A DNA stretch of 25,144 nucleotides, taken from positions 1 through 25,144 of the IMG/VR virus record IMGVR_UViG_3300022923_000094; one strand, written 5' to 3'. The position numbers were made by a program, and so were the translations under genes. Shown here in pieces: positions 1,337 to 5,532 of the stretch (the first letter of the stretch is position 1; each line of letters begins with the position of its first letter). The stretch comes from a virus. Lineage: Duplodnaviria > Caudoviricetes. The notes beneath the pieces were generated by a model that was not told the DNA's origin, did no database searches, and worked only from the letters and a program-made list of their open reading frames with translations.

Positions 1337-1608
1337 TGGGTAAGATGAAGGATCTGTTGATCGAGTTGCAAGAGACGCCGATCATGGTGCCATGTCCAGA
1401 TTGTTTGGGCGATGGGGTGATTGAGTATGAGATTGCTCGGCCTCAGAGTTTTACCCGAGACATTGGGTACTTGGACACGGCGACTGAAACGTGTGAGACG
1501 TGCAGCGGCGACGGTGAGATGGAGCGGCTGTGCGATTGTGGGATGCCTGTGACTAAGATCATGGGCCAAGATGCAGAGATATGTATGGAGTGTGCAGATG
1601 ACGCATAG
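1336..1608 (+). CDS. DnaJ-type zinc-finger protein
   Basis: CPDCLGDG and CETCSGDG (CxxCxGxG pairs) plus CDC and CMEC; GGAGG RBS before ATG 1336. Confidence 0.7.
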   Translation: MGKMKDLLIELQETPIMVPCPDCLGDGVIEYEIARPQSFTRDIGYLDTATETCETCSGDGEMERLCDCGMPVTKIMGQDAEICMECADDA

Positions 1609-1783
1609 GTTAGAGGTACTGATGCTTCCGAGTGTGATGGAGCAGGGGAACATTGCGTATGACAATGTGAAGGAATGGGACTTTAATTTGTCTCAAGGTC
1701 TTATGATTGAGTTGGAGGATGGGGCAGTGATTTACCTAAACCCGATGCATGTCATAGGTGTAGTTTGGAAAGAACTACAATAA
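1598..1783 (+). CDS. Hypothetical protein (61 aa)
   Basis: ATG 1598 with GGAG upstream; overlaps the previous stop and fills the gap. Confidence 0.55.
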   Translation: MTHRLEVLMLPSVMEQGNIAYDNVKEWDFNLSQGLMIELEDGAVIYLNPMHVIGVVWKELQ

Positions 1784-1786
1784 GGG

Positions 1787-1814
1787 GTTGACATGCGGAC
1801 CATCCGCATGCAAC
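1787..1814 (+). promoter_or_regulatory. Palindrome overlapping a -35 box upstream of the RAMP-like gene
   Basis: GTTG-A-CATGCGGA-CCA-TCCGCATG-CAAC; TTGACA at 1788-1793; no canonical -10 at 17 bp. Confidence 0.5.
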
Positions 1815-1857
1815 AAACAATTACTTTCAACTAGAAGCCAAGTAAGGAGAAAATATC

Positions 1858-2640
1858 ATGGCAACGAAGAAAGCACCACAAGAAGCGGCATTGGAAATTC
1901 AACCGTTGAAGCAGGGTCGCGTAAAGCTACGCATGATGGGCACGACCCCATTGTATTTTAACAGCATGAGTTCGAAGGCTATGCGTGATTTGTTGATTGG
2001 TGGCGGCAAGAAGACTGCTGCGCAGCGCAAAGAGATCAAGCACAATCCAGAGCAGGAGTACCGAGATTCGGTGTACAAGAAGCCGTTTGGGGAGACGTTA
2101 CTTTGTTTCCCTGCACCTGGTGTCAAGGGTGCGATGGCGACTGCTGCGTTGGAGACTGACGGTATTACGAAGACGAGTGTGCAGCGTTTGATCTTTTTGC
2201 CACAGACGCACGTTCAGATTTGGGGCAAGCCTCAGTTGAAGATTGACATGGTTCGGTCTGCGGACATGAACAAGACGCCAGACATGCGGACCCGTGCGTA
2301 CTTGCCGCGTTGGTGTGCGGAGGTTGACATTGCGTATGTGCAGCCGACTTTGTCTGCGTATTCGATTGTGTCGTTGTTGACGAACGCGGGATCGATTGTG
2401 GGTATCGGGGACTTCCGACAGGAGAAGGGCCGAGGATCGTTTGGCACGTTCCAAGTATTGACTGAGGACAGCATGGGTTCGTTCCAAGAGGAGTGGGATG
2501 AGTTGATGTTGGAGGGTCGAGATGTTCAGCAGGATGCGTTGGACAATCCAGAGTATGCGGATGATCAGACGGCGGAGCTTATGCAGTTCATGGCGGAGGA
2601 AAGATCCCGTCGGGATGTTACTCTCGTTGCTGCGGAATAA
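1858..2640 (+). CDS. Stand-alone Cas7/RAMP-like RNA-binding protein (candidate RNA-guided effector)
   Basis: N-terminal strand VKLRMMGTTPLYFN, FPAPGVKGAM (cf. the RAMP IPGSSLKG motif), C-terminal glycine-rich loop GIGDFRQEKGRGSFGTF; TAAGGAG RBS; adjacent to the periodic array. Confidence 0.75.
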   Translation: MATKKAPQEAALEIQPLKQGRVKLRMMGTTPLYFNSMSSKAMRDLLIGGGKKTAAQRKEIKHNPEQEYRDSVYKKPFGETLLCFPAPGVKGAMATAALETDGITKTSVQRLIFLPQTHVQIWGKPQLKIDMVRSADMNKTPDMRTRAYLPRWCAEVDIAYVQPTLSAYSIVSLLTNAGSIVGIGDFRQEKGRGSFGTFQVLTEDSMGSFQEEWDELMLEGRDVQQDALDNPEYADDQTAELMQFMAEERSRRDVTLVAAE

Positions 2641-2659
2641 TACTAGCATTAATAACAAC

Positions 2660-2685
2660 GGATCGGGGGCCGAGCGCCCCCATCC
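2660..2685 (+). other. GC-rich hairpin after the RAMP-like gene
   Basis: GGAT-C-GGGGGC-CGAGC-GCCCCC-ATCC; only a weak U-tract follows. Confidence 0.55.
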
Positions 2686-2820
2686 ATTTAGAGTTACAGC
2701 CGTGACCAACTGGCGAGAGGTGTCTCACATATGCACCGATGTTGGCGGCAAGCTGTGAGTGTCTTAACCGCAGCAATTAGAGGGAAGCTATTCTTCTCCG
2801 TTTCCTGATCTAATATTTTG

Positions 2821-3540
2821 GTCAAGGTTAGATATGTTGAGACGGTCTGGGTGAGGCGCGGTCGAGCACGTTCGGTTAAGGCGGGGTACGGTCCGGTTGG
2901 GTCAGGCGGTCCCGTTTCGTTTGGGTCTCACAGGGTTCGGCTGGGCAAGATGTGGTAAGTTTCGGTGTGGCGGTCAAGTTCAGGCGGGTCCACGTTTGTT
3001 ACGTTAAGGCGAGGTAAGGCGGTCGAGGTGTGACAAGGTCGGTTATGGCAAGTCGGGTTAAGACGGTCGGGGCACGGTCCGGTTTGGACGGGTTCGTTGA
3101 GTTGGGGCGCGGCACAGGCATGGCCCGTTTTGGTTTGGCGGTCTAGGTTGGGTACGGCGGTGTGTGTTGGGTTTCGTTGGGTCAAGGTTTGTTAAGGCGG
3201 TCGGGGTCATTCTAGGTGAGGCGTGATATGTTCGGTTAAGGCGTGGCCTGGTCACGGTACGGCGGTCTTGATTAGGTGCGTTCGGGTTAGGTTCGGTAGG
3301 GTGAGGACACGGTACGGCGGTCATGGAATGATAAGTTGAGGTATGTCGGGTTCGGTCAGGTCGTGTCATGGCGGTCTAGGTTGGGTGTGTTGCGTTGTGT
3401 CCCGTTGTTATGCGGTGTGTCATGGCGGTCCCGTTTGGGTGGGTCGTGTCATGGTTAGATCCGACAAGTTATGTCAAGGCGGTCGAGGCGCGGCATGATG
3501 AGTCACGTTGCGGTCAGTCGGGTCGCGGTACGGCGGTCAA
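2821..3540 (+). repeat. Non-coding array of GDY-NN pentamers punctuated by GGCGGTC; putative guide-RNA array (12 full units + 1 partial)
   Basis: GGCGGTC/GACGGTC at 2841, 2905, 2969, 3018, 3062, 3137, 3196, 3261, 3316, 3370, 3424, 3478, 3532; spacings 64,64,49,44,75,59,65,55,54,54,54,54 (5n+4, or 5n where one extra base is present); about 120 of 128 hand-parsed triplets fit G[G/T/A][C/T]. Confidence 0.9.
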
Positions 3541-3567
3541 CTAAACAGCTAGAAAAGGAGAAAAGAA

Positions 3568-4080
3568 ATGGCTGGTTTTCCAAAGAAAGAACGTCAAAGA
3601 ATTATTGACGATTACTTAGCGGCATCGGGCCGCAACATGTTTCATCCTGCGGAGTTCGTGGATTGGTTGGGTGGACAGCCTGACCATGAGGCGTATGAGT
3701 GGTTCTATGGGATGGAAGATCAAGAAGCTGCACGACAGTGGCGCATACAAATGGCGCGTCAGATGGCGAGTGGTCTGAGGATCGTGGTTCAAGAGTCGGA
3801 CCCCGAGGATCAGGTGGTGAGCATAAGCGTGAGGGAGTATCCTACGTTTATAAGTCCGGTGAGTTTACGCAAGAAGGGTGGCGGCTACGAGCGGTTTGAT
3901 CCTGACAGTGATGACTCGCAGCGTGAGTTGCGGCGACAGGCCGCGACGGCATTGGCGACCTGGTTGGGAAGATACCGTGGTTGTGCGGAGAATTTTGGGT
4001 TAAACTTGACAGCAATAGAGGAGATTGCGGAAGTTCTTAGAGAGAAAGGAGAGAGCGATGTTCAAGAAAATGTGGGATAG
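3568..4080 (+). CDS. Hypothetical protein, probable accessory of the RAMP/array locus
   Basis: AGGAG RBS at 3556-3560, just after the array; P.EFVDWL...PDHEAYEWF..EDQEAARQWRIQMARQ resembles a recurrent phage family; function unknown. Confidence 0.75.
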   Translation: MAGFPKKERQRIIDDYLAASGRNMFHPAEFVDWLGGQPDHEAYEWFYGMEDQEAARQWRIQMARQMASGLRIVVQESDPEDQVVSISVREYPTFISPVSLRKKGGGYERFDPDSDDSQRELRRQAATALATWLGRYRGCAENFGLNLTAIEEIAEVLREKGESDVQENVG

Positions 4081-4300
4081 GTTGACGCGCAAGCGACAGA
4101 CCAACCAGAAGCTGACGAGGAAGGAGCAGATCCTAGCTGAGTTGGACCGAGGAGTTGGGACTGCGAAGCAGTTGGCAGACCGCACTGGTTTAAAGCTGAC
4201 GATTGTGAGGGCGACGATGACGCAGTTACACAAAGCGGGAATGATCAGGGACACTGGCAAGAACGCGGGTCGTGAAGGTGTGTGGGAAGTTTCCCGATGA
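4058..4300 (+). CDS. Winged helix-turn-helix DNA-binding protein
   Basis: EQILAEL..GTAKQLADRTGLKLTIVRATMTQLHKAGMIRDTG...VW wHTH pattern; GGAG upstream of ATG 4058. Confidence 0.75.
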   Translation: MFKKMWDRLTRKRQTNQKLTRKEQILAELDRGVGTAKQLADRTGLKLTIVRATMTQLHKAGMIRDTGKNAGREGVWEVSR

Positions 4301-5454: not shown

Positions 5455-5532
5455 ACACTGCTCGACAGTAAGACCCATGCCTGTGGCCTTACTGCCTCAT
5501 ATAACTAGCCCCTTAAACGGGGCTATTTTTTT
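5455..5532 (+). ncRNA. Candidate small RNA (~75 nt)
   Basis: TTGCCG(5420)-17 bp-TAGGAT(5443) with TGn extension, internal stem CAGTAAG/CTTACTG, ends at an intrinsic terminator; no credible ORF. Confidence 0.4.
5506..5532 (+). terminator. Rho-independent terminator ending the early region
   Basis: TAGCCCC-TTAAAC-GGGGCTA followed by T7. Confidence 0.8.

Follow-up and report, generated by a model that had tools for sequence, protein, structure and literature searches.

A guide unit of a staggered phage VIPR array predicted to address the nucleophile motif of large serine recombinases

The stretch of DNA analysed here (the window, 25,144 nt) is an entire virus record with an estimated completeness of 44%, containing a DNA polymerase A, a primase, two helicases and virion genes. 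The nearest relatives of its DNA polymerase, at 46-53% identity, are found in 023Pt_psg01, DSL-LC04 and the pelagiphages HTVC023P/HTVC027P. Part of the window is occupied by a VIPR locus. VIPR, which was described in 2026 and is related to CRISPR, silences genes by means of guide RNAs (10.64898/2026.04.26.720920; 10.64898/2026.04.26.720927; 10.64898/2026.10.15.759431; 10.64898/2026.10.21.760802). In this locus, the array of guide units is flanked by the vipr gene on one side and by a conserved partner gene on the other:

1858..2640, + strand: vipr gene, encoding a 260 aa RAMP/Cas7-like protein with a G-loop GIGDFRQEKGRG
2848..3538, + strand: staggered vrRNA array of 12 units, built of NN-G[GTA]Y pentamers, each unit closed by the 4-nt GGTC
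3568..4080, + strand: candidate vap (accessory) gene, 170 aa, 3' of the array and kept in relatives

The ORF at 1858-2640 has no Pfam family in a Pfam scan. Compared with the Vipr of SUSP1 (PDB 36pp), it gives E=0.032 as a single sequence and E=3e-8 with a profile of 128 relatives. D185/F186/R187 and R146 align with D177/W178/R179 and R138 of the SUSP1 protein, whose GGY-binding residues have aligned counterparts in the window Vipr, a RAMP homologue with both G-loop and thumb. The predicted fold (AlphaFold2, pLDDT 96) resembles the class 1 CRISPR RAMPs, the top Foldseek matches being Csm3 and type VII Cas7 (E 6.6e-7; TM 0.3-0.45). Class 1 CRISPR systems differ from this locus in that the window lacks CRISPR repeats and other cas genes among its 22 scanned ORFs, and in that guide information is carried here in dinucleotides. 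The sources named for a Vipr relative (75% identity) and a partner-gene relative (60% identity) are a Sulfitobacter MAG and Tranquillimonas, respectively; this is a loose indication of marine Rhodobacteraceae as possible hosts.

As a conserved accessory gene, the candidate vap gene is present in 50/62 related loci overall, and in all 41 of the 41 whose sequence extends 1700 nt or more downstream of vipr. None of its 215 homologues is named, and it has no Pfam family. An Rfam scan of 1600-4200 gave no match and a promoter scan found none. Between vipr and the array lies a 200-nt segment (2641-2847) that is missing or altered in many relatives; at its end, at about 2824-2847, four extra pentamers stand ahead of the array.

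VIPR arrays consist of alternating GGY/NN pentamers, or a related consensus, beside vipr, and here the consensus is G[GTA]Y (scaffold triplets GGT 35, GTT 27, GGC 24, GTC 15). The period-5 signal is limited to the array, with a lag-5 identity of 0.42 at 3001-3600 against 0.19-0.33 in other 300-nt blocks. Splitting at GGCGGTC/GACGGTC sets the unit borders and gives 12 abutting units of 44-75 nt that have only GGCGGTC in common, in agreement with the numbering of units 8 and 2 in the preliminary description. Sixty-two related viral loci yielded 226 distinct units, and since 163 of these have a length of 5n+4, the arrays fit the 'staggered' type named in the legend of Fig. S18 of the first VIPR report, a source accessible in part (10.64898/2026.04.26.720920). 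Among the 62 relatives (L089-L150, downstream of vipr), both the order and the content of units are reshuffled.

Contigs from RNA libraries, from which runs with a small share were left out, cover the array; these contigs may be DNA, and transcription and ends are not readable from them. Some contigs (2689-3561, runs X1 and X2) join array units with skips, for instance from 3322 to 3560 or from 3203 to 3472, and are consistent with strain variants that gain or lose units at GGCGGTC borders.

The code was studied over the guides of the whole clade. The search covered 49 stretches, each a whole record (1.66 Mb with both strands counted). Matches at E<0.01 were obtained for 11 of 187 guide runs when one base was skipped, whereas skips of 0, 2 and 3 bases gave 2, 1 and 0; guides related to units 2 and 6 were left out of this count, since those had picked the records. 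A mapping in 3.7 Mb gave 21 guide runs at E<0.05. In frame are 16 in the antisense and 3 in the sense orientation (the latter all variants of unit 9), and the remaining 2 are off frame. Thus, in 19 of 21 guides the one-base skip is aligned to the codon wobble. Counting independent well-mapped sites, 8 of 9 are antisense and 1 of 9 sense (the reversed controls gave 4), so that the sense orientation, which unit 8 requires, is real but uncommon in the clade. The targets lie in competing mobile elements and not in the phage itself; searches of the window and of four near-complete relatives gave no significant self match.

Three units apart from unit 8 could be assigned to a target:

2912..2975, + strand: unit 2, antisense guide on the H-x-L-R-H box of tyrosine integrases
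3144..3202, + strand: unit 6, antisense guide on the N-terminus of the T7-like terminase large subunit (LNLPDPTPVQY)
3323..3376, + strand: unit 9, sense guide on a phage ribonucleotide reductase (MINEIGRRVM)

For unit 2, Pfam Phage_integrase was found in 76 of 109 viral matches, 79 of the 109 having been scanned (ORF of at least 60 codons). Ten contigs match 11 of its 12 pairs, and the same box is addressed by another three guides of the clade. In the best targets (L195 and nine similar contigs) a gene resembling an HTH repressor adjoins the integrase, and this phage group may represent temperate competitors. As for unit 6, 119 of 120 viral matches fall in frame in an ORF of at least 100 codons, 17 of them with 11/11 pairs; a weak Pfam terminase match was obtained in 14 of 20 scanned targets, and tblastn leads to T7-like DNA maturase B, the closest named phages being pelagiphages, Roseobacter CRP and Ralstonia phages. 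In variants of this unit (L100-L134), a change of the pair AA to AG swaps leucine codon families, and changes also occur in the pair corresponding to a residue at which the terminase motif varies. Unit 9 matches 19 of 20 bases in a single record of the local set (L501, E=2e-4), in an ORF belonging to Ribonuc_red_lgC. With unit 6 matching terminase and unit 9 ribonucleotide reductase, the array cannot be regarded as specific for integrases.

Among the relatives, the T7-like terminase gene is a shared target of no fewer than five independent guides, and a small gene of record L287 is shared by two. Units 1, 3, 4, 5, 7, 10, 11 and 12 have no significant target in 3.7 Mb of sequence from the local set. 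Unit 5 (3069-3143) and unit 11 (3431-3484) show weak sense matches of 15/18 and 16/20 (E about 1, not significant) in large ORFs of T7-like phages, which we take to be RNA and DNA polymerase.

Unit 8 comprises two parts:

3268..3304, + strand: guide part with eight NN pairs (TT TA GC CG TA TC AG GA), a sense match to the nucleophile motif of large serine recombinases
3305..3322, + strand: unit end, a GGAC slip and a 14-nt end module shared with other units, likely not target-reading

In the 5-nt register, the unit reads TT-GAT (NN starting at 3268), TA-GGT (3273), GC-GTT (3278), CG-GGT (3283), TA-GGT (3288), TC-GGT (3293), AG-GGT (3298) and GA-GGAC (3303). After these eight pairs comes a one-base register slip, followed by the end module (3309-3322), which ends in GGCGGTC. 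The preliminary description had given the span as 3265..3315; its NN register from 3268 stands, while the unit ends at 3322 and not at 3315. The end module closes 18 of the 226 clade units, and the guide of unit 8 is therefore likely eight pairs long. Unit 8 is present in 6 of the 62 related loci, beside differing neighbours, and its eight pairs are invariant in all six copies, which vary at one scaffold base and at the last NN of the end module. One further unit (L100:4814-4878) has the last three pairs and the end module of unit 8 with different upstream pairs. This variant has no clear target among 121 matches examined (largest cluster, 11), and a single 19/20 match was rejected because it lies off the codon frame and is about as good as expected by chance.

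When the pairs are taken as the first two bases of codons, the sense decode of unit 8 is [FL]-Y-A-R-Y-S-[SR]-[DE], a degenerate reading in which TA could also be a stop; on the opposite strand it is S-L-[DE]-Y-R-A-Y-[KN]. The serine of YxRxS is the nucleophile of resolvases, and the recognition of this motif in the preliminary description was borne out by the searches that follow.

Searched in IMG/VR, pairs 2-8 hit N-termini of serine recombinases in 79 of 120 examined matches (about 170 estimated), distributed in 41 clusters at 80% identity. The calls were made with an HMM from 13 GTDB proteins, the residues of the motif having been removed from the queries beforehand. None of these viral recombinases has TT at the first pair, where AT, CT or GC mostly appear. 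The same seven pairs in reversed order gave 50 matches in the whole collection, with a largest cluster of 8 and no dominant family. This total equals the background of non-recombinase matches obtained with the real pattern (41/120, which corresponds to about 58 for the estimated 170). With all eight pairs exact, 13 of 86 GTDB matches belong to Pfam Resolvase (8 clusters), the match lying at the domain start. So far, 18 of 88 exact matches, those in which the sense frame stays open for 60 codons or more, have been sent to Pfam: a Resolvase domain starting at the motif was found in 13 of the 18 ORFs, 9 of which also have the Recombinase domain. One further exact match (L052) has the motif followed by a stop after 21 codons and was left out of the recombinase count; another (L039), from a Kordiimonadaceae MAG, lies in a recombinase with three domains that stands alone amid metabolic genes, with nothing seen to link it to the phage of the window. 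In metagenomes, all eight pairs retrieved recombinases in 12 of 120 examined matches (about 150 estimated; 8 clusters). Three spot-checked proteins from the viral and Rhodobacteraceae matches contain Resolvase, Recombinase and zinc-ribbon domains.

The preliminary description had also proposed a search for enrichment of serine recombinases, and this enrichment appeared, in frame, in the viral collection with pairs 2-8 and in the genome and metagenome collections with all eight pairs. Its claim that both major integrase classes are targeted agrees with the results for unit 2 and unit 8; that this occurs at their least mutable codons was its own supposition, and third codon positions vary freely across the 53 recombinase clusters.

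It has to be noted that strings spelling a motif enrich for their own family, which makes these searches partly circular, and the case therefore rests on a null of random guides. For this null, 30 recombinase loci were drawn by Pfam PF07508 from 41 Rhodobacteraceae genomes without use of the unit 8 pattern, and a regular expression located the motif in 15 of them, the other 15 being dropped. The best match of unit 8 to the 15 sampled motifs is 14/16, a value reached by 12 of 2,000,000 random 8-pair guides of clade composition in either orientation (p=6e-6 per guide window). The best value among the 186 other clade guides is 12/16. Allowing for about 50 windows in the array, the probability becomes 3e-4, and with an assumed 50 recognisable motifs as well it is about 1-2%.

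Other results weigh against the match. The guide of unit 8 has only 16 bases, and the recombinase motif was picked after the sequence had been seen. The exact 16 bases gave two matches in IMG/VR, neither a recombinase nor in codon frame, and pairs 1-7 gave 86 matches in that collection with no recombinase and no family in either wobble-aligned frame, so viral recombinases fit unit 8 only with a mismatch at the first pair. In 401 genomes of Rhodobacteraceae (the family of a Paracoccaceae record), at most one mismatch being allowed, unit 8 had 8 matches against 25 for the reversed control and thus no excess in count; four of the eight are recombinases, all at 15/16 and reading IYARYSSD. No match was obtained in the phage's own record at up to 3 mismatches, nor in 50 competitor or related phage records at up to 2, and the searches yielded no particular element as the target. 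Serine recombinases are absent from the window and from four near-complete relatives. When 200 clade guide runs were compared in frame with recombinase ORFs (E<0.1), unit 8 alone mapped, whereas the tyrosine box and the terminase are each targeted by several clade guides.

With the array, the homology of Vipr, the skip-one code of the clade and the motif match demonstrated, we consider it probable (about 0.75) that unit 8 is an array guide on the YARxS motif of large serine recombinases, predicted to bind there and likely silencing the recombinase of a rival integrated element. The array as a whole is predicted to be a general anti-competitor panel directed at serine recombinase, tyrosine integrase, T7-like terminase and ribonucleotide reductase. 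Rather doubtful is the broader proposal that unit 8 serves as a family-wide blocker of many unrelated large serine recombinases across hosts, and not of one satellite; if this were true, marine lytic phages would broadly police integration and excision.

It could also be argued that unit 8 works, but that its likeness to recombinases is coincidental and its true target lies in some other gene not yet sampled, which it would read out of frame or in the antisense direction (S-L-[DE]-Y-R-A-Y-[KN]). Antisense is the commoner orientation at mapped sites (8/9), the pairs corresponding to S-L-[DE] in that reading are all three retained in the L100 variant, and natural guides often carry mismatches (the mean match of SUSP1 vrRNA4 is 89% in the accessible part of its report), so exact scans can miss targets. 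However, antisense in-frame calls as the best frame are few and unrelated (2/120, 4/86, 6/120 and 4/86), and the 14/16 match to the recombinase motif would arise by chance with a probability of only 6e-6 per guide window, which leaves this explanation improbable. A specific antisense target was rejected, the matches being scattered over unrelated genes. Still less probable is that unit 8 silences nothing and is carried as a passenger, short, recombined or outdated, since its eight pairs, fewer than the 9-16 repeats reported for vrRNAs, its register slip, its presence in only 6 of 62 loci and the reshuffling of arrays are answered by the constancy of those pairs beside differing neighbours, by the six-unit footprint described for SUSP1 vrRNA4 and by the fact that units of 7-8 pairs are common in the clade.

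For silencing of the recombinase by unit 8, a mechanism can be proposed by analogy with SUSP1. Thus, the array would be transcribed together with vipr, and the transcript would be cut at the unit borders and coated by one Vipr per pentamer. The NN pairs would then read DNA, with each third base flipped out. The reading of the target may nucleate close to the RNA's 3' end, as the accessible text on SUSP1 suggests, and unit 8 would therefore tolerate a mismatch at its 5'-most pair; a U-G pair could let this first pair accept CT. Bound where the recombinase ORF begins, the resulting Vipr filament would repress it, and the element would be held in place.

The closest precedent in the accessible part of the literature is SUSP1, whose vrRNA4 silences the recombinase of the F5 satellite through a wobble-aligned site at residues 79-84 (10.64898/2026.10.15.759431). 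The locus of the window resembles this type II VIPR in its Vipr RAMP protein, its accessory gene, its GGY/NN code and a skipped base that corresponds to codon position 3 (10.64898/2026.10.15.759431; 10.64898/2026.04.26.720920), as well as in directing a guide to a recombinase of the serine type, within its catalytic domain. Judging from the same accessible text, the two differ in several respects. The footprint is at residues 79-84 in SUSP1 and at the N-terminal YARxS motif for unit 8; SUSP1 has four vrRNAs of ~100 nt with a structured tail, whereas the window has 12 abutting, tail-less units of 44-75 nt; the placement of the array between vipr and the partner gene stands as another difference; and Vipr has 260 aa in the window against 202 aa in SUSP1. 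The satellite targeted by SUSP1 is named (F5), while the reading for the window rests on a motif match. Because no structured, invariant 3' tail was found in the units, which share only GGCGGTC, the system is not filed as type II. The likeness to the staggered-array VIPRs of the Fig. S18 legend, as far as this source is accessible, extends to abutting units, a register shift of one base and the length of 5n+4. No natural targets of marine or staggered VIPR arrays were found in the published literature searched, which was accessible in part.

The VIPR system, its code and the strategy of silencing a recombinase (SUSP1) are already published, as the accessible parts of those reports make clear. 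What is new is the clade, the footprint on the YARxS motif and the combination with a guide on tyrosine integrases, although the clade may already figure in published target data. Recombinase-directed VIPR is thereby extended from one phage-satellite pair of E. coli to an abundant clade of marine phages with staggered arrays, in which both integrase classes, terminase and ribonucleotide reductase are addressed by a single array. Moreover, the 226 distinct units of the 62 relatives constitute a readable record of the competition between elements.

Beyond the VIPR locus, a terminator-like hairpin lies at 5506-5525, where the run of + strand genes meets a helicase run on the - strand.
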